From IMG/VR virus record IMGVR_UViG_3300045988_137040: 64,000 nt of DNA; one strand, given 5' to 3'. The notes under the pieces are model-generated. The model was not told the DNA's origin, ran no database searches, and was given only the letters and a program-made list of their open reading frames with translations. The DNA comes from a virus. This document shows positions 2,521-58,441 of this stretch, in pieces (within the stretch, counting starts at the first letter, position 1; every line of letters begins with the position of its first letter). A program made the translations under genes and the position numbers.

Positions 2521-2564
2521 AATAGTTCCTCCAATAATTTATGGTTGGTTATTCTGATTGTGTT

Positions 2565-2757: not shown

Positions 2758-2762
2758 GATAG

Positions 2763-3605: not shown

Positions 3606-3628
3606 ATCGTTGTGATTTAGAATTGTTG

Positions 3629-5041
3629 TTATGCTGCTTTAGCTTGTGTTCTCGATTTCTTCTCCAGCTTCACGAACTCCGCCTTGTTGTCCGTGATAAG
3701 CTTCCGTATCTCCTTGTCACGCTCCGGCACCGCGTTGCAGGCGGCACGGCACTGCACGATAGTGTTCGATGCCATGTTGTACTCGATGGTGGCCAAACGC
3801 TTGCCGTTGTCGTCCTTGGCAGAGAGGATAAGACTTTCGGGGTGGGTAAAATAATTCCAATAGCCCATGCGGTACACGCAGTGGTGCATGTGCTCGGCTT
3901 CTTCCTTGAACTCGTCAACGCTTTGCAGCGGACGGATAGTAAGGTTCGTGGAAGTCAAGTCGATTGTCAGCATCTTGCCCATGTGCTCGGGATAGTGTTG
4001 CGCTGCCTCGGCCTCCCGCTTGGCACGCTTAGCGCACTCCGCATTGTAGAGTATCATGTCTTGCCTCCGTCGCTCAGCCGCCATAGCCTGTAGTCTGGCT
4101 TCGGCAATTTCGTCGATACGCCTCTTGCGCTTCAGCAACATGTCATGCAGGGCGTGCAGATTGTCGGGACACACAAACTTAGGATTGTGGATGTCCATGT
4201 GCAGGAACGTCAGCAGATAGAGCGTGTCAAGCCATAGCGAAGGGTCGTCGATATGATATTTATGTCGGATGCAAATCTTCACGGCCGCCTCCCCACCATG
4301 GGGCAGACGGGTTCGGTTACGCACAAGATGGTCGAAGAGCGGTGTCTGAGAAGCAGACAGCATCGTCTCAGCGATAGGATAGGCTATCACACGGATGCAG
4401 CTGGTGTTATAGTCGTACTTGTCCATCAGTCCCGGCACGTCCTTGTACTGCCACTGCTTAGTGAGCGATTTTATCTCATAGTTCCACACATAGAGATTCT
4501 TCCGCATCATGGAGCCCCAACCCATGCAGTTAGGTGACAACTCCCGGCGAAGTATCAATGGTGAGGACTTGCTGAAGGCGTCATACGCATAGGACATAAC
4601 ATTTACAGTACGCTCATATACCTTGCGCTCTCCCGTAGGAGCATACATGATGCGCTCAATCTCCCACGCATGCACCTGCGCTGCCTTGCCATATTGCAGC
4701 TTACGCTCCACGCGGACATAGCGCACCAACTGAATGTCACGCTTAGCCTCGAAGATAGCAATATCACGAAGCTCGGTATCCACTCGGCGGCGATTTAGCT
4801 CCACCGTCTTTTTCTCCGTCCACTTGGCATGGCACTGAGGACATTCGTGCTGGCCGATAGGGTTGATAGAGCAACCGCACTCGGTGCAGAAGTAAACCAG
4901 CTCGCCACGCAACACCCTCGAAGCAAGACCGGGCTTGAACAGTTTACGATAGAGGCGGTGGGTCTCCGTCTTGCCGGGTTCGTCATGCAGACGCTTGTTG
5001 ATAGCGGCGCAGCGTCTGCCAAATTCTGTCACTCGTTTCAT
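3629..5041 (-). CDS. pcfJ: PcfJ-like protein
   Basis: C-terminal FKEEAEHMHHCVYRMGYWNY ... RLATIEY ... IVQCRAACN matches the PcfJ domain signature. The start overlaps the stop of the PcfK-like gene by 4 nt, as in pcfK-pcfJ pairs of Bacteroides conjugative elements. Confidence 0.75.
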   Translation of the reverse strand: MKRVTEFGRRCAAINKRLHDEPGKTETHRLYRKLFKPGLASRVLRGELVYFCTECGCSINPIGQHECPQCHAKWTEKKTVELNRRRVDTELRDIAIFEAKRDIQLVRYVRVERKLQYGKAAQVHAWEIERIMYAPTGERKVYERTVNVMSYAYDAFSKSSPLILRRELSPNCMGWGSMMRKNLYVWNYEIKSLTKQWQYKDVPGLMDKYDYNTSCIRVIAYPIAETMLSASQTPLFDHLVRNRTRLPHGGEAAVKICIRHKYHIDDPSLWLDTLYLLTFLHMDIHNPKFVCPDNLHALHDMLLKRKRRIDEIAEARLQAMAAERRRQDMILYNAECAKRAKREAEAAQHYPEHMGKMLTIDLTSTNLTIRPLQSVDEFKEEAEHMHHCVYRMGYWNYFTHPESLILSAKDDNGKRLATIEYNMASNTIVQCRAACNAVPERDKEIRKLITDNKAEFVKLEKKSRTQAKAA

Positions 5042-5442
5042 TTCTTTTCCTCCTGCTTTAAGTCCTCGTCCGTTTCGTCATAGTAGTGTACGGCCATGCT
5101 GTAGATTACCTCTGGAGAGCGGAAGATGCCCACGGCAGACTTGCCTTTGCGGTTAGCCTTGGCCACCTTCAGCATCTTGCCGAAGATGTATTCACAGCAT
5201 CCGTCGATGCTCTTTCCGGGTGCTGCAAGTTTCTCGATGATGTCGGGACGGGAATACAGATAACCCTCGATAGCCTCCTTGAACTCCTTGGGGATGACAT
5301 AGCTCGCACCGCCCTCGCTCTTTTTGGTATCGGCGTGGGCCTTGGAAGTACGCTTAGACTCGCTCTTAGGCTGAGCCTCTTGTTCACGCTGCTGCTTCAG
5401 TTCCTCGGCAGCGGCTTTGATAGCTGATAAATCAATAGCCAT
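5038..5442 (-). CDS. pcfK: PcfK-like protein
   Basis: FKEAIEGYL....GKSIDGCCEYIFGKM...VIYSMAVHYYDE matches the PcfK-like family pattern. It sits immediately upstream of PcfJ. Confidence 0.7.
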   Translation of the reverse strand: MAIDLSAIKAAAEELKQQREQEAQPKSESKRTSKAHADTKKSEGGASYVIPKEFKEAIEGYLYSRPDIIEKLAAPGKSIDGCCEYIFGKMLKVAKANRKGKSAVGIFRSPEVIYSMAVHYYDETDEDLKQEEKK

Positions 5443-14662: not shown

Positions 14663-16582
14663 TCAGCTTTGCATTACCAGGTTTTTGAATCTCCCTCTCA
14701 GTCTTCCTCCTACTTTCCTTTCTCCCTCGGCTCCCATCTTGACACCGATAACGAGATCGTCGAAGGCATCGGTGATGTCGGTACGTGTACGTGGGTCACC
14801 GGCTACGCCGTCGGCACTCTTGTATTTCTCCAGGCTTTTATCCTTTTGGAAGTTGTTGAGCACGCCTGCGTTGTTGATAGCGGTAAGGAGATACTGGCAT
14901 CGTCCGCTCTCCTTACAGATGTAAACGCTCGGGGAAGTCTGGAAGGAGAAGACATCGCAGAACAATTGCCACTTGCGTTCATGACGCCACACGCTGAACT
15001 CCCCACGTGTGACTTTCCATCCATAGCTCTCCAGCTCCAAAACCATAACGTTGTCAAAGCGACTATCTTCAGAGCCTTCTACAGCGTATGCCGTAGCTCC
15101 ACCTTGCTTGATGGTCTGCGTGTAATAGAAGATGACCTCCCCTGCCCCACCAGCCGCGCTGTTTCTTCTACGGAGGTACGGACGGTAGTAATTCGTAAAC
15201 TCTCTCACGAGGCCACGCAACCGCACCTCGCCCTGCACGAAAAACTCATTCATGACGAGAAGGCTCGGCTTACCTTGATAGTTGACAGTCTGCCCTACCA
15301 CCATGCAGCTCATGTCGTGGCCAGCGTCGATGGCGATACGTAATGGCTCGTCATAGCGCAAATCGAGGTCGCAAGAGCAATCCTCTCCCGCGCTCTGCAT
15401 GGCGTCCATGTCAAGTGTCATATATTCAACATCGGTAGGCCACCGTTGCGCGTCGAGGAAACGTCCCTTTGTCTTATGGCTGAACTTGTCGAGGATAAGA
15501 TCCGTACAGTCGGCACTCTCATAGGTGTTAAGCTCTTCGCTGAACTGGCAGTAGAAACCATCCGAAGCCTTGCCAGGCGGCTGACCGAGTATCTGCAGGC
15601 GGAACATCAGGTCTGGCAATTCTCGCTTCATGTCGCGCAGCCACGCCTCGCCACCAAGCATGGCGATGTTCTCAATGCTGCTGAACTGCCAAAAGACTTC
15701 AGACTTGGAACGTAAAAGATTGAGTTTGCGCAGGTAGTTGTCGTTACGTGACAAGGCAATGGCGGTCTTCGGGCTATGCTTCTCCAGGTATTTGAGTTCC
15801 GCGAGCATCTCGGCAATCTGTGCGTTGACGTCTTTAGTCTCATAGTCTTTTTCTTTCTCCCACTCGCATTGTTTCTGCGTCAGTCCCGCGTCGCTGACCC
15901 ATAACTGACTGCAATAGTAAGGATTGATTTTAGGGTCTGTGCCGTAGCCCCACCGCTTGACTTCTGCCTTGCGTGCCGACAACGGCATGAAATCGCCACG
16001 CAGGGTAGGCAATACCTCCTCCTTAACCCTTTGCCACGGGAGGTATTTCGTCTCGTCGCCGATAAGGAAAGCGAGGTTCAGACCGTTCGAGCTTCCCTTG
16101 ACTGCCATGGAGAGCATCTGCACGACCACGCCATTGCTGAAGTGGACACAGTTTTCCCACACTCTCGGCTTGGCAAGAGGTACGTCCCAATGGAGCTTGG
16201 CGGGTGCCTGGCCAAGAAAATAAAATCCCTCGAAGCCTAACTGGTTGACAACCTTTAGCGCGTTGGGCATGGTACGGGTGTAAAGCTGTTTAGCGCTCGC
16301 CCCAACAAAACCACCCATCTGGCGAGGCATGCCGAGGACGCATTTCATCATGTGGCAACCTATATAAGAGGTCTTGCCAAAACCACGCGCGGCGCGTACT
16401 TTCGTGTTCCTCGCGCCAAAGTTGTAGACGTCAAGCTGGCCACGATGCATGTAGATTTTATGTACGCCGTCGCCGACAATATCCACCTCGCCACCGTCTT
16501 GCCCCTGCTCCTCCATGCCGGGGAGCATACGAGCTTCAAGCTTGTCACTGCTCCTGCCTACGTTCGTCCCTACTCTCGTCAT
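14663..16582 (-). CDS. terL: terminase large subunit
   Basis: N-terminal ATPase Walker A-like AARGFGKTS, Walker B-like LIGDETKY, and a C-terminal nuclease-like acidic motif (RIAIDAGHD). The size is typical. An alternative start at 16528 is possible. Confidence 0.75.
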   Translation of the reverse strand: MTRVGTNVGRSSDKLEARMLPGMEEQGQDGGEVDIVGDGVHKIYMHRGQLDVYNFGARNTKVRAARGFGKTSYIGCHMMKCVLGMPRQMGGFVGASAKQLYTRTMPNALKVVNQLGFEGFYFLGQAPAKLHWDVPLAKPRVWENCVHFSNGVVVQMLSMAVKGSSNGLNLAFLIGDETKYLPWQRVKEEVLPTLRGDFMPLSARKAEVKRWGYGTDPKINPYYCSQLWVSDAGLTQKQCEWEKEKDYETKDVNAQIAEMLAELKYLEKHSPKTAIALSRNDNYLRKLNLLRSKSEVFWQFSSIENIAMLGGEAWLRDMKRELPDLMFRLQILGQPPGKASDGFYCQFSEELNTYESADCTDLILDKFSHKTKGRFLDAQRWPTDVEYMTLDMDAMQSAGEDCSCDLDLRYDEPLRIAIDAGHDMSCMVVGQTVNYQGKPSLLVMNEFFVQGEVRLRGLVREFTNYYRPYLRRRNSAAGGAGEVIFYYTQTIKQGGATAYAVEGSEDSRFDNVMVLELESYGWKVTRGEFSVWRHERKWQLFCDVFSFQTSPSVYICKESGRCQYLLTAINNAGVLNNFQKDKSLEKYKSADGVAGDPRTRTDITDAFDDLVIGVKMGAEGERKVGGRLRGRFKNLVMQS

Positions 16583-17268: not shown

Positions 17269-17347
17269 TTGCGGTTTCGCAAACATGTGCTTTTGTGCAA
17301 CCGCATGGTCGTGCAACCGCACGGTTGCACGACCATGCGGTTATGCA
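17269..17347. repeat. 8-bp-register GGTT/AACC box array O1, containing a 22-bp-arm palindrome
   Basis: caaccgca tggtcgtg caaccgca cggttgca cgaccatg cggttatg. Positions 17297-17346 form a near-perfect inverted repeat. Confidence 0.85.
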
Positions 17348-17703: not shown

Positions 17704-17726
17704 GATTTTCCCTTTTGATTTTATGT

Positions 17727-17790
17727 TACACGGTTGTGCGGTTACACGACTATGCAGCTATGCGGCTATGCGGTTACACGACTATGCGAC
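17727..17790. repeat. 8-bp-register array O2
   Basis: cggttgtg cggttaca cgactatg cagctatg cggctatg cggttaca cgactatg cgactcga. Includes an 18-bp direct repeat. Confidence 0.85.
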
Positions 17791-17800
17791 TCGAATAAGG

Positions 17801-18335: not shown

Positions 18336-18372
18336 TATGCAACCGCATGGTTGTGCGGTTGGGCGGTTGCTT
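18336..18372. repeat. 8-bp-register array O3
   Basis: atgcaaccgcatggttgtgcggttgggcggttgc, with GGTT boxes every 8 bp. Confidence 0.8.
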
Positions 18373-18378: not shown

Positions 18379-19440
18379 TTACTTGGGGATTCTGATTTTA
18401 TAAAACGCCGCAGTCTTTTTCATGCTCTCAGAAAGTTCCACGCCGAGCCCTATCAGTTCTTTAGCGTTCTCTTTCCATTGTTTCTTATGTTCAGGCGTGC
18501 CGGCAGGTCTTGGGTCCCGCAGCCACTTTTGGAGGTATTTAACACGTGCGGCTTTTTCCTCGTCGGTATATATCTTCGATGGCGCGCGTTTCTTTTTGTG
18601 TCTTGTTTGACGTTCACCATCCTGTCCCTTGTCAATACTCGGAGTTCGTGTCTCATCCGCCACCTTGCCGTTCTCGTCAAGGACATGCGCCATGCCTAAA
18701 TCATCCACGACAACACGTCCGGTGCTCGCCACTTTATCCCATTCTTTATCGAGCTCCCTTCTGAGGTCACCAATTCCCTTGTCGAGCGCCACGGCAGTTT
18801 TAGCCCATCGCTCCCTTTCTGTAGCCGTGGCTCCAACGTCATCCATGAGCAACCGCATGTTTCCGCGAGCAGTTCCAAGGTCTTTCATCATCTGACCATA
18901 ATTAGCCGCACGCTTCCGCGTCTCCTCTGGTAACAAATGTGCGTATTGGTCAATATGCTTCGGGCGAGGGACAGCCGCCCCAACCTCAGTGACGACAGCG
19001 TTTATTTTTGCGGTTGTGCTGTCTTGCGGTTGCACGACCGTGCAACTTTGCGGTTGTGCAGCCAACGTGGTATCATGCCCTGGTGTTGGCTTTACTCCTG
19101 GTCTTTGCAGACATTGTGTGAGGACATCTATAATACGGTGTATGCTGCGCTTGGCAGCCTTGGTATAAATCATGGTGGGTAGCCACGTGTCGACAATTCC
19201 CGCAAAGGGAGTCATTAGGCGCACGCCCTCGTTGAAGGCGTCTTGGGCGTCGGTAGACCAGCCACCGCACACTTGCTCAACGCTCATTATCCTCGCCGAC
19301 GGTTCATTGGCTTTAGGCAAAAGGATATTGGCTTCCTGCTTCAGCCACTCCCCTACCCTCTTAGAGAGGTCTTGCTTTTCGCCTTCCGTCATGTTGCTCA
19401 CTCTTCTAAGCCACTCGTTAGACGCTATCCGGTATATCAT
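18379..19440 (-). CDS. hypothetical protein (353 aa), containing intragenic octamer array O4
   Basis: Continuous ORF. The C-terminal half is charged and helical. Confidence 0.55.
   Translation of the reverse strand: MIYRIASNEWLRRVSNMTEGEKQDLSKRVGEWLKQEANILLPKANEPSARIMSVEQVCGGWSTDAQDAFNEGVRLMTPFAGIVDTWLPTMIYTKAAKRSIHRIIDVLTQCLQRPGVKPTPGHDTTLAAQPQSCTVVQPQDSTTAKINAVVTEVGAAVPRPKHIDQYAHLLPEETRKRAANYGQMMKDLGTARGNMRLLMDDVGATATERERWAKTAVALDKGIGDLRRELDKEWDKVASTGRVVVDDLGMAHVLDENGKVADETRTPSIDKGQDGERQTRHKKKRAPSKIYTDEEKAARVKYLQKWLRDPRPAGTPEHKKQWKENAKELIGLGVELSESMKKTAAFYKIRIPK
19008..19062. repeat. 8-bp-register array O4, inside the 353-aa CDS
   Basis: cggttgtg ctgtcttg cggttgca cgaccgtg caactttg cggttgtg. 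On the minus strand it encodes ...AAQPQSCTVVQPQDSTT... Confidence 0.8.
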
Positions 19441-19540
19441 ATTGATAGTATATAATTGTTTTATGGGCTAAAGATAATACAGACGTGACAAGTAGGCAAG
19501 GGCAAGGGCAAGAGTTCTCATTATTAAAAATGTTTAATAT

Positions 19541-19688
19541 TATGCGGTTTTGCGGTCGCACGGTTGTGCGGTTGCAGAATTTTCAATAACTTTGCATCGC
19601 TACAACAAAACAAGACCGTTCGATTTTGTGGTTACACAGTCGCACAACCGCATAATTGCAGTAACTTGCGGTCGCACATCTGCGCATA
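19541..19688. promoter_or_regulatory. parA-upstream centromere/operator candidate (arrays O5a 19541-19580 and O5b 19626-19688 flanking a promoter)
   Basis: O5a: atgcggtt ttgcggtc gcacggtt gtgcggtt. O5b: cgattttg tggttaca cagtcgca caaccgca taattgca gtaacttg cggtcgca. Between them lies TTGT - 19 nt - TAacTTTG (19563-19594). Confidence 0.55.
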
Positions 19689-19714
19689 TTCATATTTTAT
19701 ATAAAGCTACATTT

Positions 19715-20581
19715 ATGAGTAAGGTAAAATCTACACATCTCCGGCACATAGTTGCCGTGAGCAACAACAAGGGTGGGGCAGGGAAGACCACCACGGTATT
19801 GAACCTCGCTGCGGCAATCGCGCGCAAAGGCTACCACGTGCTTGTCATCGACACTGACCCTCAATGCAACCTCTCGCTCTCTGTAGGATGGGACACGACA
19901 AGAGAGGGCACGCGAACCAAACCTGGCGAGCCGACTATCTTCAATGCGATATGCCTCGGACAGAACATCCCCGTCTATCGCAATGAGACAGGGTTGTACT
20001 ATACGCCGTCATCTCCGCGCATGGAAGACGCCGACATCCACTTGAACAGCTCTGAGGTGACAGACCCTGTGCGTGTGTTGAAGATGCTCTTCGCTGAACC
20101 TATAGACGACCACACGGGCGAGGGCTTGAAAGAGTGGGAAAGCAGCTTCGACTTCATCTTCATCGACACACAGCCTGCCATGAGCCGAGTCACGGTCAAC
20201 GTGATATGCGCGGCCACGGGTATCATCATACCAGTTGAACTGGAGCCGTTGGCCGTTGACGGCTATGTCAAGACCATCGGTAAAATCATGAAGATTAAAA
20301 AGGTGAGCAATCCATCCCTGCAAATCCACGGTATCCTGCTCACCAAGAAAGACCGACGACTGGTAAGCGCACGGAGTTTCGAGGAACAACTGCGTGAGGA
20401 GGGAGACGTTTTCGAGACGACCATCAGCCGCACCAACGATGTGCCCAACTCGCAAGACCGGGACTACGACGAACGGCCCGGTATCTGTCACGACATCTTC
20501 AGCTACCAAAAAGGCAGAGGACGTGCCAAGGAAGATTTCACCAACCTTGCCGAAGAGTATATCAAGAAGTGGGGAAAGTAA
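19715..20581 (+). CDS. parA: ParA/Soj-family partition ATPase
   Basis: Deviant Walker A VAVSNNKGGAGKTTT and VLVIDTDPQCNLS. The start is set at the ATG at 19715; the listed ORF begins at a TTG inside the repeat array. Confidence 0.85.
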   Translation: MSKVKSTHLRHIVAVSNNKGGAGKTTTVLNLAAAIARKGYHVLVIDTDPQCNLSLSVGWDTTREGTRTKPGEPTIFNAICLGQNIPVYRNETGLYYTPSSPRMEDADIHLNSSEVTDPVRVLKMLFAEPIDDHTGEGLKEWESSFDFIFIDTQPAMSRVTVNVICAATGIIIPVELEPLAVDGYVKTIGKIMKIKKVSNPSLQIHGILLTKKDRRLVSARSFEEQLREEGDVFETTISRTNDVPNSQDRDYDERPGICHDIFSYQKGRGRAKEDFTNLAEEYIKKWGK

Positions 20582-20740
20582 CACAACCGCACGACCATGC
20601 AACTGCATAACTGCAATAATATGCAACCACTTAACTACATAACCGCATAGTTGAGCAGTTGGGCAGTTACTAAAACACACGTATGTGCAACTATGTGGTT
20701 GCATAGTTGTGTGGTCGCACAGATAAGCAACCGCAAAAAA
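20581..20740. repeat. 8-bp-register array O6 (20 consecutive octamers) between parA and the small downstream gene
   Basis: acacAACC gcacGACC atgcAACT gcatAACT gcaaTAAT atgcAACC acttAACT acatAACC gcatAGTT gagcAGTT gggcAGTT ... atgtGGTT gcatAGTT gtgtGGTC ... aagcAACC. Box orientation flips midway. Confidence 0.85.
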
Positions 20741-20748
20741 CATAAGAT

Positions 20749-21123
20749 ATGAACAAGAAAGAAAAACCGCAGCGCAGATCGCTAAACGCAAGAATAGACG
20801 CAGAGTTGGCAAGCGCAGAAAACATACCGTTGGCAGGAATGACCAGAGAGCCAGCAAAACCAGTGAAAACTCCATCGCAGAGCTCAACTTTGGGGCGGGG
20901 TGGGGGAGAGCCTATAGCAACCAAGAAGGCAACGACCATCATGCCCAAGGATGTGTTCGTGGCCCTGCAACGCTATTGCATCAACAAGGACACGCCCAAG
21001 CACCGTGCGCTCTATTTCTTCATCCTTGACGGACTGCATGCCGCTGGGGAAATCAATGATGCCGACTATCAACGCTTCCGCGATATGGCCGAGCAGATAA
21101 CTACGACATACGAAAAGAAGTAA
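20749..21123 (+). CDS. putative centromere-binding protein (ParG/RHH-like, 124 aa)
   Basis: Position directly after parA. The N-terminal half looks basic and disordered. The C-terminal TTIMPKDVFVALQRYCINKD...LYFFILDGL is compatible with a ribbon-helix-helix fold. Inference only. Confidence 0.4.
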   Translation: MNKKEKPQRRSLNARIDAELASAENIPLAGMTREPAKPVKTPSQSSTLGRGGGEPIATKKATTIMPKDVFVALQRYCINKDTPKHRALYFFILDGLHAAGEINDADYQRFRDMAEQITTTYEKK

Positions 21124-21136
21124 ACAATCAAGACAA

Positions 21137-21571
21137 ATGAAACAAGAAAAATTATTTACTATTCTCATGCTCCTCTTCCTGAGCATGATGGCCATCAGCT
21201 TCGCCGCGTGCAGCAGCAGCGACGACGAAGAGGACGACGGATCGCAACGTTACAAGAATCAAATCATCGGAACATGGTATTGCGACCGCGTTTCGTATGT
21301 GTTCGAGTCGGACGGCACCGGATGGTCTAACAGCGACAGCTGGGACGTTATTGCCCACTTCAAGTACACCATCGAGGGGCAAGGCGTGCAGATGCATCAG
21401 TTCACCTACGTTAACACCACCACTGGCAGTCTTTGGTACGGCGAGGACCAATCCGCTTCCTACAATCCTGAGCAGAACACCATGCGCATCGAAGGACGTG
21501 TCTTCACGCGTCAGAAGCCGACACACAAACCGCCCACAGAGGAGCCGGTGGACACCGTGGTGACGGAGTAG
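21137..21571 (+). CDS. lipoprotein (144 aa)
   Basis: Signal peptide plus lipobox MKQEKLFTILMLLFLSMMAISFAAC followed by SSSDDEEDD. Followed by an intrinsic terminator. Confidence 0.65.
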   Translation: MKQEKLFTILMLLFLSMMAISFAACSSSDDEEDDGSQRYKNQIIGTWYCDRVSYVFESDGTGWSNSDSWDVIAHFKYTIEGQGVQMHQFTYVNTTTGSLWYGEDQSASYNPEQNTMRIEGRVFTRQKPTHKPPTEEPVDTVVTE

Positions 21572-21607
21572 GGTAGGGCGTCCATCATCACACCCGACAC
21601 TTCAACG

Positions 21608-21637
21608 GCAAGGAGCGTGGCTCCTTGCCTTTTTTTG
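21608..21637 (+). terminator. intrinsic terminator after the par-lipoprotein operon
   Basis: GCAAGGAGC-gtg-GCTCCTTGC followed by CTTTTTTTG. Confidence 0.7.
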
Positions 21638-21894
21638 TTTGGCACTCACATCTATAGCCGACACTTCCGTTTTTGTCGGGATTTTCAACTTGCTAAATAC
21701 TTCTAACTCAAAGGTTTACAAATTTAGCTATTTCTAATTATTCTTTGAAGTTACTAATTTGTCGGTAAAGCTATAAATCTGTCATCAAAGTTGTGTTTTT
21801 CCGACCGACCTAATTATTAGGCAGTTACGGCTATATATTTGGATTATACTATATCGACCACTCTATATATCAACAACTTATGGACTTTGCCAAA

Positions 21895-22284
21895 TTGAGG
21901 ACAGATTAACAGCTAAAAGAAAAAATCAAAAATACTCGATTCTTATTATATAATTATTGGTATAGATAGTATATAGTATATAAGGCTTTGTAACTTATTG
22001 ATAATCAAATAATAGCAAGGTGAATTGAGGACAGATTAATAGCTTTTTGAGGACAGATTAATAGGTTTCGGGGGACAGATTAATAGCTTTTTGAGGACGG
22101 ATTAATAGGTATTATCTATGAATTGAGGACAAATTAATAGCTTTGGAAACTCCGACAAATAGGTAACTCCATATTATTGAGGACAATTTTATAGCTTTAT
22201 CAATTATTTAAGGAGTGCTAAAATTCAAAACTATCTGAAAATAAACACGTAAAGCCTTGTGTAATTGAGGACAAATTTATAACT
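21895..22284 (+). promoter_or_regulatory. iteron-type replication origin (8 iterons plus an AT-rich unwinding region)
   Basis: Eight copies of about 20 bp, consensus TTGAGGACAGATTAATAGCT, at 21895, 22025, 22047, 22069, 22091, 22123, 22177 and 22265. The central four are spaced exactly 22 bp apart. A very AT-rich tract lies at about 21925-22015. The last iteron overlaps a TAacTTTG -7 box (22280-22287) upstream of rep. Confidence 0.85.
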
Positions 22285-22350
22285 TTGCCAACAAATGGTA
22301 AAAGACATGGCTACAACTGTCCGAGCTACCACACATTAAAAGCTACAAAC

Positions 22351-23562
22351 ATGGCAAGAAAATCACGAAAGGCTGAGCAGCTCAAGCAAGAGTTGTTGAG
22401 CACAGTGCAGCAGCAGGAGCTGATTACTCAGCCTGTTACCTTCGCTTACATCAAAGGTGAGATGTCAGTGATGCAGGCACGTATTCAGACAATCATCATG
22501 GAGAAGCTGCAACTGCGCATCGCAAAGTTCTTAAAGGAGAGGGCGCATGATGGCTTTGCTGGATGCTTATTCTCCGATGAAGATTTCGCCCCGCTCAAGG
22601 GGGAAAATGACAAGAGCAGGTATCTCACGTTCAGTGTGAAATACTCAGAGCTCGGCATACCGTCGGCAAATTACCGCTACGTCTCGGACGCTGCGAGAGC
22701 CATGCAGGGCTCTTTGGTATATGAAAAAAGCATTGTTGACGACGGAAAGACTTATAAGCGATATATCGTTGCTTTTCCCGTAGTCGATGTCCCGGACGAG
22801 AGCCTTGGAGAGCGACGCACTGACATCAAGCTCCACATGACAGAGAGCACTGCAAAATATCTCTTCCGTATTACGCCCTATCACCGATACCTTAAAGACG
22901 CGGTGTTTCTATTCAACAGCGGATATACGGGCAGGATATATCTGCTTATCAATGCCAATAAGCAGTTGGGTACATGGAATATTGACTACGACGAGCTGCG
23001 CAAGATACTCCTTACCACCTATGACAAAGAAAATGATAAATATGTCTGTGACAAATACCCTGATATTAGGGATTTCAAGCGCCGTGTCCTCGAACCGGCC
23101 CGCAAGGAAATCATGGAGGTCGCAAAACGTATTGACTGCACTTTCGACTACGAAATAAAAAAGAAGCGTGGCTCGAATGAGAACATCAAGATAGTTTTCC
23201 ATATCCACCTCACAGACCTCGGAAAGAACATCAAGCAGGGGCAGCTGGAAAGCCAGGAGGCCGTGACGCTGCGCAATGCGCTGATGAACCTGCATATCAC
23301 CATCACCGACGCAAACAGGTTGATGAAGCAAGTCTCCGCCGAGCAATATCCAGCTCTAACCAACAAGGCAAGAGAACTGATGAAATACTACCAAGACGTC
23401 AGAGAGGGGAGGGCAAAGGGAGTCTCAATCAAGGACTACCGAGCCCATGCCGTTAAGTCCCTTCAAAACATTATCTTAGGAAAAGGCAACTTCTTCAGCG
23501 AAGCCGTCGAGATAAATGACAAGCCTATTTCAGAACCCCAAAAATCATTAAACGAATGGTAA
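22351..23562 (+). CDS. rep: plasmid-type replication initiator (Rep_3/RepB-like, iteron-binding)
   Basis: Lies directly downstream of the iterons. NSGYTGRIYLLI......GTWNIDYDELRKIL.....YPDIRDFKRRVLEPARKEI matches the second winged-helix pattern of the Rep_3 family (S.Y.iRlYell...G...i...eLr..L....Y..f.dfkrrVlepa.kEi). Confidence 0.75.
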   Translation: MARKSRKAEQLKQELLSTVQQQELITQPVTFAYIKGEMSVMQARIQTIIMEKLQLRIAKFLKERAHDGFAGCLFSDEDFAPLKGENDKSRYLTFSVKYSELGIPSANYRYVSDAARAMQGSLVYEKSIVDDGKTYKRYIVAFPVVDVPDESLGERRTDIKLHMTESTAKYLFRITPYHRYLKDAVFLFNSGYTGRIYLLINANKQLGTWNIDYDELRKILLTTYDKENDKYVCDKYPDIRDFKRRVLEPARKEIMEVAKRIDCTFDYEIKKKRGSNENIKIVFHIHLTDLGKNIKQGQLESQEAVTLRNALMNLHITITDANRLMKQVSAEQYPALTNKARELMKYYQDVREGRAKGVSIKDYRAHAVKSLQNIILGKGNFFSEAVEINDKPISEPQKSLNEW

Positions 23563-24434
23563 GAACAACGAAACCCAATTATACCGCCCTCTGGCAGCAG
23601 TGCCTTAACTATATCCGTGACCGTTACCCTAAGGGCGAGAAGTACGACCACTGGTTCAACGTCTGGTACGGCGACGTGAAGTTTGAGAGCTATGATGCCG
23701 ACAAACGTCAGTTGCGTATCAACGTGCCGTCGAAGTATGTGTACGAGTACCTCGAGACGCACCAACTGGAAACGCTCAATGAGGCTCTGCGGGCCACTTT
23801 TAAGGAACAGGTGGTGCTGTCCTACCATATAGCTCCGCAAGAGCCGTCATTCGCTGATATGGCTGCTTACCTGCAACGGCAGTCGGGTGGGGTAGGACAG
23901 GGTAAAATCCATATCCATATCGACAACGCAAGAGAACGGTTGGAAGATGGTTTGAAATACTATCTGAAGGATAAACCTGTCACATGGCTACCGGGTTATG
24001 AGCATATCGTCCGATGGTTGACCGACAACGACAACCGGGGACTGTTGTGTTTCGGCTATTCGGGGGTGGGAAAAACATTGATATGTCAAAAGATTCTTCC
24101 GATACTGATAGGCCGGCCCGTTGTCAGTGTCAGGGCAACAGACCTGCACGACCGTCTCGAAGAGCTGAAGCGTGAGCGCATCGTCGTCATCGACGACCTC
24201 GGCAAGGAGCCACGCAAACACTATGGCGACACCGACCAGAGTTTCTACGAGTTGTGCGACAATGCCGAGCATACTGGCAACATCCTTATCATCACCACGA
24301 ACCTCTCCACCAATACCGTTGACGACCCACACTATCCCGACAGCATAAAGAACCGCTATGGTGAAGAAGTTTTTACCCGGCTGAAGGCCATCACTCACAC
24401 CGCACGTATTGAAGCCGAGAGCCTGCGCGAGTGA
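23556..24434 (+). CDS. DnaA-N-like / DnaC-IstB-like AAA+ ATPase (putative helicase loader)
   Basis: Walker A GYSGVGKT and Walker B RIVVIDDLG. The N-terminus LWQQCLNYIRDRY....W...V....FESYD...LRINVPSKYVYEYLE resembles DnaA domain I. ATGGTAA overlaps the rep stop. Confidence 0.7.
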   Translation: MVRTTKPNYTALWQQCLNYIRDRYPKGEKYDHWFNVWYGDVKFESYDADKRQLRINVPSKYVYEYLETHQLETLNEALRATFKEQVVLSYHIAPQEPSFADMAAYLQRQSGGVGQGKIHIHIDNARERLEDGLKYYLKDKPVTWLPGYEHIVRWLTDNDNRGLLCFGYSGVGKTLICQKILPILIGRPVVSVRATDLHDRLEELKRERIVVIDDLGKEPRKHYGDTDQSFYELCDNAEHTGNILIITTNLSTNTVDDPHYPDSIKNRYGEEVFTRLKAITHTARIEAESLRE

Positions 24435-24437
24435 TAT

Positions 24438-24543
24438 GGGCGCCGCTTCGCAGCTTGAAATTAAACGTAAAATTATCCGTAAAATTAAACTTAAAATTAT
24501 TCAACCAACCAAGGCTTGCTGAGAGATAGGGTAGTGGGCGCCC
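24438..24543. repeat. composite repeat, copy C (half-size variant)
   Basis: GGGCGCC...GGCGCCC closing stem and GCTTGAAATT, followed by four direct 12-bp modules (aattaaacgtaa aattatccgtaa aattaaacttaa aattattc). Located at the convergent junction between the replication module and the late block. Confidence 0.75.
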
Positions 24544-24586
24544 AAAGGAAAGGAATTGATGCGACCAGTATCAATTCCACGTCTCT

Positions 24587-25504
24587 CTATGTTCCCATGC
24601 ACACCGTGCGTTTTGCGGTTGTGCGACCGCATAGCTTTGCGGTTATCGTCTCACGCACGAGTTTAGCGCGTGATTCCCAATCCGCGATATTCTCGTTGTC
24701 ATTGAGACAGACGACGCCAGCCATCGGGTCGTTGATGAGCGCAGGGAGGTCGGCGGTGGGCGTGTCCTCGTCGGCGTACTGCATACGCGGGGAATGGTCG
24801 ATGTCAAGACCCGCGAAGTGCTGATAGAGCAAGTAGATGTACTGGTTGAACGAATGCTCGGTGCGAACGAGAGGACTCATCCACCGCTCTATCTCCTCGC
24901 CATGCCGTTGCCAAACCGCCTCGCAAGCAGAGCGGAGGATGGGCGCATAGGAATGGCCCGTCGTCAGCCAGGTGCGCACATAGTGTCTACCAAAAGGTCT
25001 GCCAATCATGTTCTGCTGATTCAGACATTTTCGATGAAAGATATTCGGCACATCGGGAAAGAGTTTTTCTTTGAAGTGGACACACGGACGACCGTCAAGA
25101 AAGAAGTCGGACGGCTGTAAAGGTGAGAGCGGGAACATATCGTCGTTGGCATAGACAAACCTTTCCGACAGCCCCGGTATGCGGCCTAAGAACATCTCAA
25201 TGCAGGGCGAGGAAAAGCAAGGAAGATACTTCTCCGGAATGAAGTCACGATGAAAGACGATATGCACCTTATCGTAGCGTGACATCCACGGCTGCACCTG
25301 ACTCTCACGGGCGAGAAGGATATGGATGGTACGGAGCCATGGCATATACTTCATGCAACAACGAACCAACAACTCTTCCGTCCCCCATGAACGGAAGCGG
25401 ACGTTGGCACAAGCGTCATCGCCGTGGTAACGGCGATAATCGCTGAGCCAGTCCGCATCCTGGGGAAACACCATCGGAACTACTAAATCAATATTTTTCT
25501 CCAT
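24587..25504 (-). CDS. Stealth-family protein (putative sugar-1-phosphate transferase, capsule-modification type)
   Basis: IDLVVPMVFPQDADW (CR1-like). RFRSWGTEELLVRCCMKYMPWLRTIHIL and FIPEKYLPCFSSPCIEMFLGRIPGLSERFVYANDDMF match my recollection of Stealth CR2/CR3 (RF.d..ELrYSlRS....PW.r.i.iv ... lP.FnS.aIE..l..IpgLsE.F.Y.NDD.f). Confidence 0.55.
   Translation of the reverse strand: MEKNIDLVVPMVFPQDADWLSDYRRYHGDDACANVRFRSWGTEELLVRCCMKYMPWLRTIHILLARESQVQPWMSRYDKVHIVFHRDFIPEKYLPCFSSPCIEMFLGRIPGLSERFVYANDDMFPLSPLQPSDFFLDGRPCVHFKEKLFPDVPNIFHRKCLNQQNMIGRPFGRHYVRTWLTTGHSYAPILRSACEAVWQRHGEEIERWMSPLVRTEHSFNQYIYLLYQHFAGLDIDHSPRMQYADEDTPTADLPALINDPMAGVVCLNDNENIADWESRAKLVRETITAKLCGRTTAKRTVCMGT
24605..24647. 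repeat. 8-bp-register array O7, at the 3' end of the Stealth gene
   Basis: cgttttg cggttgtg cgaccgca tagctttg cggttatc. Confidence 0.75.
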
Positions 25505-28500
25505 ATCTTCCTACATTTTTCTTGCCCGTGTCATAACTATCTATTATTCCACCTTTGCCATAGACATTAAAGACACCCTTGATACCATTGCTGACAGCTT
25601 TCTCCATAACCTCGCTGTTACGGTCAAGACTTGCTTGAATGGCCGCAAGCATATCGGTGAATGCAGGTTGTGCTGAGCCAGCAGAGCCTTGTGCGCTCGC
25701 GCCATCGGCAAATTCATCGAGGTTACCGTCGGCAAAGTTGCTCATGCCACCGCCACGCTGACGGGTAGCACGCACACGGCCTCCATTGTAAAGCGTTTGG
25801 ATTGCCTGCCAAATGCCCGTATCGTTCATCTGCAACTTGCGGGTGGTATTGGCGTCGATAATCGCCTCACGGCCACGCTCACCGACAAGGTGGAACTCTG
25901 GGCCGTTGGTGAGGTGAGTAGTTGGGTTCGCACCCATATATCGCGCGCGATACGTTTTACCATCAGCGGCATCCACGTTGTATCGCTGCCCAGGGGTAAG
26001 CGACGACGGGTTCGTGAACTCATTGACGTTACCCTCGGCATAGGTCAGCATACCCGTGGAGAGACGACCGGCGGAAACGTTAGCACCAGTTGCTTGAGCG
26101 ATTTGCGATTTACTCTTTGACGCTTGACTTACGGCCAAGGCCATCAAACCGCCCATTAGAGCAGTCACGGCGGCATAAGTTGCTATTGCAGCCGGATATG
26201 GCATCTCACCCAACAACTTGCCGAGGATTCCAGGCATCTGCACCGTTTGCTTAGCTTGTTGCTGGAACAAGTCGGTTGTCAGCATTGTTATGGCTGCTTG
26301 GCCAGCGGCTTGCACAGCGAACATCTGAAATTTCTGCGAGGTGCTCAAGTTGTTATTACTCATTGCTTGGTAGGCGGTGCCGTAAAGATTGGCGGCTTGT
26401 GTCATCTTGGCGAAAGCACTGCGGGTGCCTTCTTCGTTTGCCTTGTTAACGCTTTTAGTGGAAGCAATGATTTTATTGTTATTGGCGATTTGTACCTTGG
26501 CAGACCCGTTGGAAGCGGCTATCTGCGCGTCGGCAATTTGTTGGCTCTGTTCGGTGATGTTCTGCACTTGCTCATCTGAGGTGCCCGTCGACCACGACTT
26601 GCCGTTCCAGCCATCTTGCGTTTCGTCAGGCCATGGAGACTGCCACTGGTCGGCCGGCTCTTTTGCGCTGTTTGCTTGTGTGTTGTCAAAAGGATTCTCA
26701 TTCACCGGTAACCCCGCACGTTTACGACGGGCGCGTAGCCATGTGGATGGATTATTCTCATCTTGATAAGGGGTTTCCACGTCGTCAGGAGAAACAGGGT
26801 TGATAGGGTAGACTATGTTACCCAACGCGTCCACAGCCATGCCCTCAAGATTTCGTTCAAGGTTCGTGAAATCGTTACTCTCCACGGGGCGCGTAGCATA
26901 CAGGGCTTCGGTGTTGGCAATCAACGCCGAGGTGTTGTTGTCCACGGCTTGGTTTTGCATGGCCGCGTTCATCCAGTCGGTGATTTGTTCGTTTATCTTA
27001 CTGTTGACGTCGTCCATCACCTTCTTCCACGCGTCAGCCGTGGCGTTCTTCTGTTCAATCTCAAGCTGTCGCTTTAAGGCGTCCTCGCCATCGAGACTCT
27101 CATAATGAGACACGGCTTCTTTCGTGCCCGCATGCTCGGTTATTATATAAGTGCCCCCGGCACTGCCCTCACCCGTTAGGCGCATCTTGGCGAGGCTGTT
27201 GTAATAGTCGGCCTCGCCCGTCACACTCGCTTCAAACACACTCTTAGCGGAACTGGACAGCAGCGAGCCCCATTCCCTCAAAGACGTATAAAGGCGGTTC
27301 TCGCTTTCCTCCGCCTTTGCAGCGAGGTCGGCGCGCTGCTTGGCGAGGTCGGCTTCCTCTTCAGAGAGAGTGAGGTTCAGGCTCATCTTGGCGTGCTTGG
27401 CATCAAGACGGAGCTGTTCGGCTTTATCCATTTCACCCTGTTCCTCTTTCAGTTTAGCTTGCCTTTCAAGGTCGTCTATGCGCTGTTGTCCTGTCTTACG
27501 CACGAGGGCGTAATAATGATCTTGCATATTCAGCTGAATCTGCATCTGCTTGATGGCGAGACGGTCAGCGACTCGCCCGGAGGCTGGCCCTGCATTGATA
27601 AGCGAGTTGGCACGCGAGACGCTGCTTTGCTCCATGCCCAACGCCGAGGACGCTTTCTCATACAGTTGCTTCATGCTTATGTCACCGACGACAGTAGTGT
27701 CGTTCCAAGTAATCTCCACCTGTTTTTTTACCTCCGACGCCTCTCTCTTGATAGCGTCTTGAACAGTATCATAAACCGTGCGAAGCTGGGCGAGCAACGC
27801 CTCCTTCATGTCCTCGGCATGTTCGTTGTTAAGGATGGCGTCGGCCCAATCGCCAAAGCCACTCACCCGCATGTTGTTGACAAGCCGCTCCCATGTCATG
27901 TTGTAAGCATCCTCACTCTGTTGGAGGAGGAACGTGAGTCGAGGGTTGCGCTGTGTGCCATATTCGGCATTAAGGTTCTGCATCTCGTCACTGCCATAAC
28001 CCTTGCCGGAGAGCAGAATCTTTTCCTTGCGCTTGTCAAGGTCGGTATAGAGCAATCCCATCTTTTCCACGTTTTGACGCAGATTCTTGACAATGCCGTC
28101 AAAAGGCCGTTCCTTGCTGACGATTTCCTCAATGGCGTCGAGCTGCTTTTTCACGGCGGCACGCATCTTCAAGAAATCCTGTTCAACACCCTTGTCGAGG
28201 TCGCCATAAATCTTGCGCATAGCAGGAGCACTCTTGTCGCCTACCTGCTTAATCAAGTTCACCGTGGTACCGATATTCGACTTGATGAACGCCACGCTGT
28301 CACCTGTGCGGTCGGCAAGAATCTCATAGATGGTGTCGGCTTCCTGCTGCGTCACCTCCTTGCTGTTCTTAGAGTAGAGCTGTTGCAGTTCAGCGCGCTT
28401 CTGACGATACACCTGTTCGTTCTGCAACATCCGCCGCCAACCCTCTTCCTCGGTAATCTCGCCACTGTTCTGCGCATCCTCAATCTGCGACTTCTGTTCG

Positions 28501-58426: not shown

Positions 58427-58441
58427 CAACAATTCTGTGAG

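Follow-up and report, generated by a model that had tools for sequence, protein, structure and literature searches.

A candidate gut phage-plasmid: partition genes and an iteron-type replication cassette in a tailed-phage genome

The viral DNA analysed here (IMG/VR record IMGVR_UViG_3300045988_137040; 64,000 nucleotides, hereafter the window) represents ~63% of a tailed-phage genome of roughly 102 kb. Within a segment of about 5 kb, a putative partition operon flanked and interrupted by short repeats is followed by iterons, an AT-rich tract, an initiator gene and a helicase-loader candidate (Table 1). A first-pass annotation of the sequence had named a ParA with a deviant Walker A motif, eight ~20-bp iterons (the central four 22 bp apart) beside an AT-rich tract, a Rep_3-like initiator and an AAA+ loader whose start overlaps the rep stop, as well as a terminase, tape measure, fibres and endolysin on the same contig; every one of these features was recovered where it had been placed, and profile searches confirmed ParA, the Rep_3-type WH2 domain and the phage hallmark genes.

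Table 1. Positions of the principal features in the window.
Feature	Position	Strand	Basis or detail
TerL (large terminase)	14663-16582	-	tblastn 5e-36 over 90% of query to annotated TerL of a Microcystis phage
Octamer arrays upstream of parA, TGCGGTTG-type units	19540-19680		TRF, sequence; 8-bp period
parA, Walker-type partition ATPase, 288 aa	19715-20581	+	Pfam and PHROG matches
Second octamer set, CAACCGCA/AACTGCAT-type units	20584-20735		8-bp period; fills gap between parA and small gene
Small protein, 124 aa, candidate centromere-binding protein/ParA adaptor	20749-21123	+	position after parA
Lipoprotein-like cargo gene, 144 aa	21137-21571	+	signal peptide and Cys (lipobox) in translation
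Intrinsic terminator closing par operon	21607-21639	+	10-bp stem, 7 G-C pairs, then T run
Inverted iteron	21767-21788	-	2 mismatches
Outlying direct iteron	21895-21916	+	3 mismatches; far side of AT-rich tract
AT-rich tract, ~20% GC	~21917-22010		GC profile; between first direct iteron and tandem array
Four tandem iterons (starts 22025, 22047, 22069, 22091)	22025-22112	+	exact 22-bp spacing; TRF period 22, 3.8 copies, score 133
Three further direct iterons	22123-22144, 22177-22198, 22265-22286	+	
rep, iteron-type initiator, 403 aa	22351-23562	+	Pfam Rep3_C, predicted fold
Helicase-loader candidate, 292 aa	23556-24434	+	Pfam and PHROG matches
Tape measure, 2983 aa	25488-34439	-	PHROG tape measure 1.9e-40; precomputed PhageMin_Tail match
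GH19 lysin	39007-39546		family match
BspA/DUF285 fibre	40330-42690		family match
HTH_17 'excisionase-family' DNA-binding protein	54927-55268		family match
cI-like HTH repressor candidate, 239 aa	57596-58315	-	Pfam HTH_26/HTH_3

The parA open reading frame spans 19550-20581, with the ATG at 19715 as the start favoured by homologues and gene callers. Residues 17-24 of the product form the deviant Walker A motif KGGAGKTT (sequence VAVSNNKGGAGKTT), and the protein matches Pfam AAA_31 (3.6e-34), CbiA (1.9e-20) and the PHROG ParA-like family (5.2e-46), as well as NCBIfam ParA_partition at a value (6.3e-24) under that model's cut-off. Identical proteins in public databases are named 'ParA family protein, Prevotella sp.' and 'MAG TPA: ParA [Caudoviricetes sp.]'. 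Since it lacks an N-terminal HTH domain, this ParA is type-Ib-like. The gene that follows, which is invariably next after parA in relatives, encodes a protein in which a disordered Ser-rich linker joins a basic N-terminus to a helical C-terminal domain; 503 homologues (118-154 aa) were found, with no family match in any library searched, no PDB or fold match, and no recognisable DNA-binding fold. Its position makes it a candidate centromere-binding protein or ParA adaptor. The operon ends with a lipoprotein-like gene (a 134-aa allele in other strains), whose product weakly matches DUF5640, BamJ and PG1828 lipoprotein families.

Both sides of parA are occupied by arrays of octamers, described here for the first time as candidate centromeres. 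Upstream, TGCGGTTG-type units run in direct orientation at 19540-19576 and inverted at 19625-19680, with a Bacteroidota -7-like box (TAACTTTG, 19587-19594) between the two blocks; the octamer motif is enriched (90 matches vs 47 expected, clustered at 17.2-20.8 kb), and the array has a lag-8 autocorrelation of z = 4.3, so that this region is a candidate centromere and/or operator. Downstream, the autocorrelation is 0.45, 0.42 and 0.37 at lags 8, 16 and 24 (z = 5.3). Relatives carry arrays in the same position between parA and the small gene, built of octamers that differ by lineage. The type-Ib-like ParA would act in segregation together with the 124-aa protein, which we propose binds these arrays as centromere and operator.

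The putative origin consists of eight direct and one inverted copy of a 22-bp iteron (consensus TTGAGGACAGATTAATAGCTTT), none with more than 3 mismatches; elsewhere in the 64 kb, no site has 5 or fewer. The inverted copy had been missed in the first-pass annotation. The AT-rich tract is a candidate DNA-unwinding element, and no DnaA box with up to 1 mismatch lies in 21400-22500. A second TAACTTTG box (form TAnnTTTG, Bacteroidota-type) at 22280-22287, 64 nt ahead of the rep ATG, overlaps the last iteron at its 3' end, which makes a predicted rep promoter over that iteron plausible.

Rep matches Pfam Rep3_C above threshold (3.3e-8, 34.1 bits, cut-off 21.1) and the R6K pi protein 2nra at E = 0.0023, the N-terminal WH1 domain being undetected by sequence profiles. 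All of the top 40 Foldseek PDB matches to its AF2 model (pLDDT 76.5) are RepE/Rep-iteron complexes (~210 aligned columns, probability 1.0), with TM-scores that are low (~0.35), probably because domain orientation differs; the core is thus predicted to be a RepE/pi-like double winged helix with a C-terminal helical extension. The loader candidate, which begins 7 nt before the end of rep (stop at 23562) and is translationally coupled to it, fuses an N-terminal DnaA domain-I-like module, unseen in the first-pass annotation, to a DnaC/IstB-like AAA+ domain (Walker A GYSGVGKT, Walker B VVIDDLG). It matches Pfam DnaA_N (2.9e-8) and AAA (1.7e-4) and the PHROG DnaC-like loader family (1e-20), and NCBIfam PRK08116 under cut-off (5.4e-11). 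Homology suggests that the RepE/pi-type initiator would bind the nine iterons and open the adjacent 20% GC tract, and that the co-translated loader would recruit and load the host replicative helicase; iteron binding probably controls both the copy number and the expression of rep, by handcuffing and by occupying the last iteron, which overlaps the rep -7 box.

Iterons beside an AT-rich tract, together with an initiator and a helicase loader, are also the design of the lytic origins of lambda-type phages. The phage may accordingly be virulent or only pseudolysogenic, with Rep, iterons and loader serving as a vegetative theta origin like lambda O/P/ori, and with ParA and the small protein positioning replicating or carrier-state genomes rather than a stable prophage; we consider this unlikely, though the strongest of the alternatives. 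Because lambda-type phages use such modules lytically, the argument leans mostly on the partition genes, on the repressor switch and on the absence of an integrase; a partition operon of its own, flanked by repeat arrays and kept in all relatives, is not what a virulent phage would lead one to expect.

The remaining genome was reconstructed from the window and an independent 101,875-bp contig (ena:ERZ27229761:k119_213702), each of which bridges the ends of the other, giving a circular map of ~101.8 kb without host flanks. The two are mutual circular permutations: the first base of the contig corresponds to window position 30578, the two ends of the window fall at contig positions 33402 and 71191, and the contig is 119 bp longer than the inferred circle, a surplus equal to the assembler's k-mer. 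A circular assembly is equally expected if the virion genome is terminally redundant or circularly permuted, so that headful packaging in a virulent phage would give the same map. The phage occurs across many human gut metagenomes and was recovered mostly from bulk metagenomes, with occasional binning into Prevotella or Bacteroidaceae MAGs, a pattern that speaks against purely virulent growth; the host is likely a Prevotella (Segatella) or related Bacteroidales bacterium of the human gut.

Had the phage instead an integrated prophage stage, by means of a recombinase too divergent to detect or of borrowed host Xer, the circular contigs would be excised or induced genomes. Many genes lack a family assignment (including ORFs of 353, 354, 343, 335 and 425 aa), and the HTH_17 'excisionase-family' protein also lends itself to this reading. 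The first-pass annotation had seen no integrase or recombinase in 64 kb, and indeed the ~50 largest mutually non-overlapping ORFs (≥100 aa) of the window match no integrase, recombinase, transposase or protelomerase family; nor was any such family detectable in the other 37.8 kb, where recombinase families were sought at E up to 0.1 in the ten largest unassigned proteins. Phage_integrase, Resolvase, Recombinase, rve and DDE are without a match in the ~101.8 kb, and the window contains no tRNA genes or att-like features. Contigs carrying the window proteins that were looked up never exceed 200 kb (size histograms, 71-106 sample blocks per protein), and none of those read had host flanks; in the ParA, Rep, loader, small-protein and TerL clusters, the longest contigs, from unfragmented assembly, measure 101-120 kb. 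As a partition system would moreover be superfluous for an integrated prophage, we regard integration as very improbable.

Equally doubtful is the reading as a plasmid that took up structural genes from a phage (as a defective prophage, a tailocin or GTA-like cargo), or as an assembly chimera of the two. The genome does have ArdA, ArdC, PcfJ, PcfK and DpnD-PcfM, all typical of conjugative elements, but neither a relaxase nor a type IV secretion family was detected in the element, which encodes a full set of packaging, head, tail and lysis functions: in addition to the genes in Table 1 (TerL also weakly matches PHROG 2), these include a head protease and a virion protein. The junction order tape measure, Stealth gene, loader, rep, par, 353-aa gene, TerL recurs across numerous assemblies made independently, in different studies and with different assemblers, and in diverged relatives the rep/par cassette still adjoins phage genes (e.g. 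the TerL-side block and an Amidase_2 lysin).

Relatives at 50-75% Rep identity (59-67% in IMG/VR; also in ENA, NCBI and JGI) retain the order parA, small gene, 22-bp iterons, rep and, always adjoining rep, the DnaA_N-AAA+ loader; their iteron sequences differ while the 22-bp period is kept, and their longest contigs reach ~145 kb, never more than 200 kb. The closest Rep and ParA relatives of known context lie on bona fide Bacteroidales plasmids with the same layout, which weighs against a virulent phage. Rep shares 25-27% identity over 80-93% of its length with Bacteroides/Prevotella plasmid initiators, and the Prevotella plasmid pE2-28 has ParA, then 22-bp iterons, then Rep, its ParA being 28% identical to that of the phage (6e-22). 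On the other side, PLSDB holds no close relative or isolate lysogen, a GTDB pattern scan found a Rep relative in just 1 of 185,579 species representatives, and the element yielded neither a toxin-antitoxin or addiction module nor a dimer-resolution function. The scarcity in GTDB and PLSDB is weak evidence, because binning often drops plasmids and the pattern scan has limited sensitivity.

A virulent lifestyle is further disfavoured by the cI-like repressor gene, which is oriented divergently to a small Cro-like HTH gene and to a primase-like gene (59065-62499) with a CHC2 primase zinc finger. The neighbouring Cro-like HTH_3 gene (68-94 aa) is present in identical strains, and in some related phages the position corresponding to the cI-like gene is taken by a Peptidase_S24 repressor. 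We infer that the cI/Cro-like pair is a lysogeny switch that would govern the lysis-lysogeny decision. The primase-like gene is likely a separate lytic replication function, and its product probably drives lytic replication; lytic growth could thus be served by a replication gene other than rep.

Taken together, the circular map, the absence of a detectable integrase, the conservation of the cassette and the layout shared with a Prevotella plasmid favour a tailed temperate phage whose prophage is a low-copy free circular plasmid, not inserted in the chromosome, a lifestyle to which we assign a probability of roughly 70%. The suggestion in the first-pass annotation that the element persists as an extrachromosomal prophage is thereby strengthened. 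Its remark on the poor documentation of phage-plasmids in Bacteroidota now holds only in part: one published report describes crAssphage as a phage-plasmid (PMC10983915), and episomal replication has been proposed for an integrase-less, RepA-encoding branch of 'Quimbyviridae' (PMC8008677). Alongside these precedents, the phage and its relatives form a credible phage-plasmid lineage.

Our analysis best supports the reading of a temperate phage that persists, as a prophage, in the form of a circular plasmid of low copy number, to which we assign a probability of roughly 0.7. The first-pass annotation had placed a terminase, tape measure, fibers and an endolysin on the same contig as a plasmid-type maintenance module, and family and tblastn matches bear this out, the window's products including a large terminase (tblastn 5e-36 to an annotated TerL, with 90% query coverage), a tape measure protein (PHROG, 1.9e-40), a GH19 lysin, and fibre-type proteins of the BspA/DUF285 and DUF4376 families. 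Both ends of the window lie on an independent contig, ena:ERZ27229761:k119_213702 (101,875 bp), window position 64000 corresponding to contig position 33402 and window position 1 to contig position 71191, and the contig's own start falls within the tape measure gene (window position 30578). Since the window and this contig bridge each other's ends, they yield a circular map of ~101.8 kb that has no chromosomal flanks; the contig exceeds this circle by 119 bp, the assembler k-mer, a figure that rests on direct reading of the contig up to its last 19 kb and that may be blurred by indels. A check for circularity had been suggested at first pass, and the closed map from two assemblies supplies it.

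The 37.8 kb outside the window were retrieved in three steps, the final gap being closed by exact-protein look-ups of locus proteins. They encode a head maturation protease (PHROG, 1e-27), a head-region protein with an Ig domain, ThyX, methyltransferases, a Tad2-like protein, a DnaJ protein, and a 1659-aa methylase-helicase, the indexed counterparts of which are only 815-aa products truncated at contig ends. No integrase, resolvase, transposase or protelomerase family was found anywhere in the ~101.8 kb, either among precomputed Pfam matches or in our own scans, so that the earlier remark that no integrase or recombinase is visible in the window holds for the remainder of the circle as well; integration by way of an unrecognised recombinase is a reading that we regard as very improbable. 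Packaging, head, tail and lysis genes share the replicon with Rep, the iterons and ParA, and this arrangement of phage and plasmid genes recurs in many independent assemblies; that the element is a plasmid with defective phage cargo, or a chimera of assembly, seems to us similarly improbable. Identical genes occur in 71-106 sample blocks (exact-protein look-ups), many of them from PRJNA217052, which we take to be Fijian gut metagenomes. Clusters of exact window proteins have longest contigs of 101-120 kb where assembly is unfragmented, and none of the carrying contigs in the protein histograms read is longer than 200 kb.

Other features of the phage lie around this core. The tape measure is unusually long, reaching 3145 aa in one strain, and several assemblies break inside its gene, k119_213702 among them, which may reflect internal repetitiveness or strain variation. 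The BspA/DUF285 fibre-like gene contains long in-frame tandem repeats with units of 78/156 bp and 21/42/63/84 bp, and its product varies by strain (786 vs 779 aa). One gene, which overlaps the tape measure stop and adjoins the replication cassette, encodes a member of the capsule-type sugar-phosphate transferase family (Stealth_CR2, 1e-26) and may be cargo for lysogenic conversion or surface modification. Near the window start lies a cluster of anti-restriction/conjugative-element type; beyond that start, on the phage locus L015, follow DpnD-PcfM, the DnaJ protein and the methylase-helicase, an N6-methylase/SNF2-helicase reminiscent of P1 DarB, and in the strain of another such locus, L016, the block from PcfK to DpnD-PcfM is duplicated in tandem. 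Rfam families and tRNAs were not found in the window, and PADLOC gave no defence matches for ten unknown proteins.

The maintenance cassette forms part of a run of five plus-strand genes that sits between two minus-strand phage blocks (ORF listing); its features, and those of the surrounding phage regions, are collected in the table.

Features of the maintenance cassette and of neighbouring phage regions, in window coordinates
Feature	Position	Strand	Remarks
ArdC-N/zincin	1426-2520		anti-restriction/conjugative-element-type cluster (1426-5442)
ArdA	2763-3605		same cluster
PcfJ	3629-5041		same cluster
PcfK	5038-5442		same cluster
Neighbouring octamer arrays	17270-17340, 17725-17791, 18340-18369, 24614-24645		TGCGGTTG type; intergenic, around minus-strand genes
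353-aa gene	18379-19440	-	divergent from parA
Octamer arrays	19540-19680 and 20584-20735		both sides of parA; TGCGGTTG/CAACCGCA type, strict 8-bp period
parA	ORF 19550-20581, likely start ATG 19715	+	288 aa
Small gene	20749-21123	+	124 aa; always follows parA in relatives
Lipoprotein-like gene	21137-21571	+	144 aa; inside par operon
Intrinsic terminator, strong	21607-21639		3' of lipoprotein-like gene
Iteron, inverted copy	21767-21788	-	sequence match to 22-bp consensus
Iterons, direct	starts 21895, 22025, 22047, 22069, 22091, 22123, 22177, 22265	+	consensus TTGAGGACAGATTAATAGCTTT
AT-rich tract	21917-22010 (~90 bp)	.	20% GC; between first iteron and tandem block
-7-like box TAACTTTG	22280-22287		fits Bacteroidota motif TAnnTTTG; overlapped by last iteron; 64 nt 5' of rep ATG
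rep	22351-23562	+	iteron-type initiator
Putative helicase loader	23556-24434	+	292-aa AAA+; overlaps rep stop by 7 nt
Stealth_CR2 gene	24587-25504	-
Tape measure	25488-34439	-	2983 aa
BspA/DUF285 fibre-like gene	40330-42690	-	tandem repeats at 40753-41162, 41556-42093
HTH_17 'excisionase-family' protein	54927-55268		no partner integrase
cI-like HTH gene	57596-58315	-	239 aa; HTH_3/HTH_26
Cro-like HTH_3 gene	within 57596-59068		68-94 aa; divergent from cI-like gene

The iterons are housed in a 780-bp gap upstream of rep, where the eight direct copies reported at first pass, the central four spaced at exactly 22 bp, were all recovered beside the AT-rich tract. Nine of nine copies, the inverted one included, have at most three mismatches to the consensus, and no further site at five or fewer mismatches exists in the rest of the 64-kb window. 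The candidate promoter that had been placed over the last iteron is supported at the level of sequence, by a match to the TAnnTTTG motif. This motif was used in place of a sigma-70 model, which we rejected because its scan showed no excess over shuffles (10 promoters found vs 7.3 expected) and because it is unsuited to Bacteroidota. DnaA boxes with at most one mismatch are absent from 21400-22500.

Rep matches the WH2 domain of Pfam PF21205 Rep3_C (34.1 bits against a cut-off of 21.1; E = 3.3e-8), which is carried by all but two of 120 listed Rep homologues, and its residues 181-276 match the R6K pi protein 2nra in a PDB sequence search (E = 0.0023); Pfam PF01051 Rep_3 (WH1) gave no match in Rep at E up to 0.01. 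For an AlphaFold (AF2) model built from a 67-sequence alignment (pLDDT 76.5), the top 40 Foldseek matches in the PDB are all mini-F RepE54 or Rep-iteron-DUE complexes (probability 1.0), aligned over ~210 columns, essentially the whole target, and the model shows an added helical C-terminal extension of ~110 aa. Because the TM-scores are low (0.33-0.39 normalised to the target, or ~0.35), the WH1-WH2 tandem suggested by this predicted fold is likely rather than proven. Origin features typical of Rep_3/RepE-pi initiators are present, namely phased direct iterons by the gene and an adjacent AT-rich region, and the 22-bp period is kept in relatives despite differing iteron sequences.

The start of the AAA+ loader gene does overlap the rep stop, as the first-pass annotation had it. 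The C-terminal half of its product is DnaC/IstB-like (PHROG 3277, DnaC-like loader, 1e-20), with a Walker A motif (GYSGVGKT) and a Walker B motif (VVIDDLG); NCBIfam matches to PRK08116 (5.4e-11) and IstB (3e-6) both fall under their cut-offs. In place of a DnaC-type N-terminal helicase-binding domain there is a match to DnaA_N (DnaA domain I; residues 11-79, 2.9e-8), in a DnaA_N-AAA+ fusion that adjoins rep in every relative examined. Judged by these domains, the protein is best described as putatively loader-like in its working, with a different architecture, rather than as a plain DnaC. PDB sequence searches with this protein and with the primase-like protein described below were uninformative.

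ParA contains VAVSNNKGGAGKTT, the deviant Walker A (KGGAGKTT at residues 17-24 of 288) already noted at first pass, and its family matches agree (Pfam AAA_31 3.6e-34 and CbiA 1.9e-20; PHROG ParA-like 5.2e-46). The AAA_31 and CbiA domains begin at residue 11, leaving no N-terminal HTH domain; as a short Walker ATPase with a deviant Walker A and no HTH, this ParA has the features of type Ib. The 124-aa protein encoded by the gene that follows has 503 homologues of similar size and no match in Pfam, PHROG, NCBIfam or the PDB (profile search included); its AF2 model is of low confidence (pLDDT 57.7), with no Foldseek match below E = 2.3. A ribbon-helix-helix fold, tried as a candidate, was supported by none of these searches. 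Solely from its position and conservation, we infer that this protein is the partner of ParA. The lipoprotein-like gene occurs as two alleles (144 aa vs 134 aa) among otherwise near-identical strains, its slot being a moron-like variable site between the partition genes and the origin. On the other side of parA, the 353-aa protein, for which no family match was found, is kept at the same position in all relatives at 33-35% identity.

Absent from the first-pass list are the octamer arrays on both sides of parA, in which autocorrelation peaks at lags of 8, 16 and 24 (z = 4.3 and 5.3 vs shuffles). Relatives have arrays at the same places and with the same 8-bp period, built from other octamers: GCAATAAT/TATTGCAA in the related loci L061, L062 and L064, and GTACAAAC and CAAAAGTA in the related locus L002. 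Arrays flank parA in most relatives examined, those that bear a signal having z = 3.7-8.7; in L061, one of the two parA flanks tested is without signal (z = 0.3). In type Ib partition systems, such as ParF-ParG/parH of TP228 and delta-omega of pSM19035, the gene for a short Walker ParA precedes that of a small protein whose basic N-terminus is flexible, and very short repeats of fixed period flank the operon and its promoter. In layout, the window resembles these systems in its short ParA, its small protein and its 8-bp-period arrays, the short repeats beside the operon being found here at the level of sequence only; it appears to differ in that a ribbon-helix-helix is not demonstrable in the 124-aa protein and in that arrays also occupy neighbouring intergenic gaps. 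A fixed architecture with lineage-specific octamers would be expected of a centromere or operator whose binding protein co-evolves with it. The arrays are candidate centromere or operator sites, and, by analogy with type Ib systems, we propose that the 124-aa protein may bind them.

The nearest Rep proteins with known context are plasmid initiators of Bacteroides, Phocaeicola and Prevotella, which share 25-27% identity with the window Rep across 80-93% of the query; the RepB/Rep_3-type replicon of Phocaeicola salanitronis pBACSA01 (Rep WP_013619565.1) was among the Bacteroidales plasmids compared. The 205-kb plasmid pE2-28 of Prevotella sp. E2-28 (NZ_CP091789.1) shares with the cassette a ParA (WP_237827962.1, 28% identical), a ~1.3-kb non-coding gap with iterons of 22-bp period, and a Rep (WP_237827961.1). 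The kinship of the initiators together with the layout of pE2-28 marks the cassette as a divergent copy of a true plasmid replicon of Bacteroidales. These plasmid replicons differ from it in having conjugation/mobilisation genes aboard and no phage genes, as well as in their low sequence identity; in pE2-28, judged by size, no gene as long as that of the loader (~290 aa) follows rep, downstream of which lie three small ORFs, and on an informal look no homologue of the 124-aa protein was noted. Mini-F RepE, R6K pi and pPS10 RepA resemble the window Rep in WH2 by sequence and in a predicted fold alignable to RepE54, and their origins likewise have iterons at two helical turns beside an AT-rich tract; the window Rep differs in having no sequence-detected WH1 and in its C-terminal extension, and no DnaA boxes lie near its origin. 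F, R6K and pPS10 depend on the DnaA, DnaB and DnaC of the host, whereas the window element appears to bring its own helicase loader.

The divergent cI-like and Cro-like genes lie upstream of the gene for a 1144-aa primase-like protein with a CHC2 zinc finger; in some related phages, the equivalent repressor position holds a Peptidase_S24 repressor. In a temperate phage with a plasmid prophage, iteron-bound Rep would melt the AT-rich tract, the coupled loader would bring the host helicase, and the copies would be segregated by ParA together with the 124-aa protein and the arrays of octamers, with the cI/Cro-like switch and the primase-like gene serving the lytic pathway. The main alternative, that the cassette is the vegetative origin of a non-lysogenic phage, we consider unlikely: lambda shares the origin design, and permuted virion DNA also assembles as circles, yet it sits badly with the conservation of the partition operon, with the presence of a repressor switch and of a second gene for replication, and with the descent of the cassette from plasmids.

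Read as a plasmid prophage, the element belongs with the general class of phage-plasmids (Pfeifer et al. 2021, PMC7969092). Like P1 (RepA/oriR, ParA-ParB-parS) and N15 (RepA, SopAB), it would be temperate and tailed, lack an integrase, and carry iterons, an initiator of plasmid type and a Walker partition ATPase. Its size of ~100 kb is like that of P1, and there are further resemblances in a candidate function set apart for lytic replication and in anti-restriction cargo, a DarB-like methylase-helicase among it. It differs in its short ParA with no HTH, in having the 124-aa protein rather than ParB/SopB as putative partner, in the absence of a Cre/lox-type or protelomerase function, and in its host phylum, Bacteroidota. 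No relatedness to P1-, N15- or SSU5-type phages emerged from blastn with 19000-25000 or tblastn with Rep, neither of which gave a match in the 50,697 records of INPHARED, a collection that should presumably include the classical phage-plasmids; the same DNA had no match among PLSDB plasmids. On its gene content, the element would functionally be a P1-style phage-plasmid, apparently unrelated in cassette and Rep sequence to the INPHARED phages.

Gut Bacteroidota phages have been proposed before to be extrachromosomal without an integrase: crAssphage (Carjivirus communis) has been reported to be a phage-plasmid in Bacteroidales (PMC10983915), and an integrase-less, RepA-encoding branch of 'Quimbyviridae' has been proposed to persist as an episome, with only a RepA-like wHTH protein noted (PMC8008677). 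The terms 'Iteron' and 'Rep_3' are absent from the crAssphage report (PMC10983915), and its ParA passages, among those listed and read, concern P1 or words like Parabacteroides. The genomes of these phages are unrelated to the present one, whose cassette DNA and Rep have no match in the phage collection and whose TerL matches are all distant, namely phages of Flavobacterium, Microcystis and Polaribacter and unclassified gut phages. Within the literature library searched, no paper turned up on this phage family or on a ParA-iteron-Rep cassette of this kind.

Rep has 139 homologues at a minimum of 50% identity, the longest contigs of which measure 83-143 kb, with none above 200 kb, and IMG/VR holds 11 Rep-bearing loci on contigs of up to 144 kb. 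Gene order is constant in the relatives (parA, small gene, 22-bp iterons, rep, loader). Identical or near-identical proteins bear the public names 'ParA family protein, Prevotella sp.', 'MAG TPA: ParA [Caudoviricetes sp.]' and 'MAG: replication initiation protein [Bacteroidaceae bacterium]'. A scan of genome contigs with Rep alone gave no match, and a repeat scan with an alignment found one GTDB species representative only, a Bacteroidaceae MAG from the rumen, with the relative on a contig of 113,572 bp. Relatives from the human gut in IMG/VR are mosaic and not collinear with this phage. Numerous gut phage contigs, 60-116 kb long (L038-L060 and L068-L077, from IMG/VR and ENA), share blocks at >90% nucleotide identity, including ThyX, a 299-aa gene and DUF6948; their early regions, in the stretches read, have ERF, RecT/YqaJ, RepL-like or DNA polymerase III beta subunit genes instead, and none of these human-gut IMG/VR contigs is among the Rep-bearing loci found. 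This pattern points to extensive mosaicism, in which the Rep/Par cassette would be one exchangeable module among several. Identity with the 'large extrachromosomal elements' of Segatella was rejected because the paper on them makes no mention of phage (PMC10635906) and Rep identity is low: 52 Rep matches all fall below 60%, the best at 26.9%, two of them being Segatella plasmid records that may or may not be those elements.

A wider reading, to which we give even odds, is that the window may represent a large, previously unrecognised phage-plasmid family of ~100-145 kb in Prevotella/Bacteroidaceae of the human gut and rumen, in which a Rep/iteron origin of plasmid descent goes together with two components lacking any described counterpart: a DnaA domain I-DnaC-like AAA+ loader, and a partition system in which a new 124-aa adaptor family would read lineage-specific octamers. 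As a candidate phage-plasmid the element is well supported, widespread and of use to Prevotella genetics, yet conceptually expected; the components worth following are the pair of octamer array and 124-aa protein, which would be a new centromere-adaptor pair, and the unusual DnaA_N-AAA+ helicase loader. If the reading is true, a fragment with ori, rep and loader, to which par could be added, would be a ready stable replicon for genetically intractable Segatella/Prevotella, and the cassette is a candidate replicon/stability module for their genetics. The phage-plasmids of Proteobacteria, Firmicutes and Actinobacteria are well charted, and the authors of the 2021 survey describe them as under-detected in Bacteroides-type hosts, a blind spot (PMC7969092). 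With its partition genes, iteron origin, repressor switch and closed circle, and with no integrase, the present element would be a clear case at the level of genes. It is prevalent in gut samples and has relatives in the rumen, and it would recast such gut-virome contigs as instances of lysogeny without integration, missed by integrase-based lifestyle predictors.
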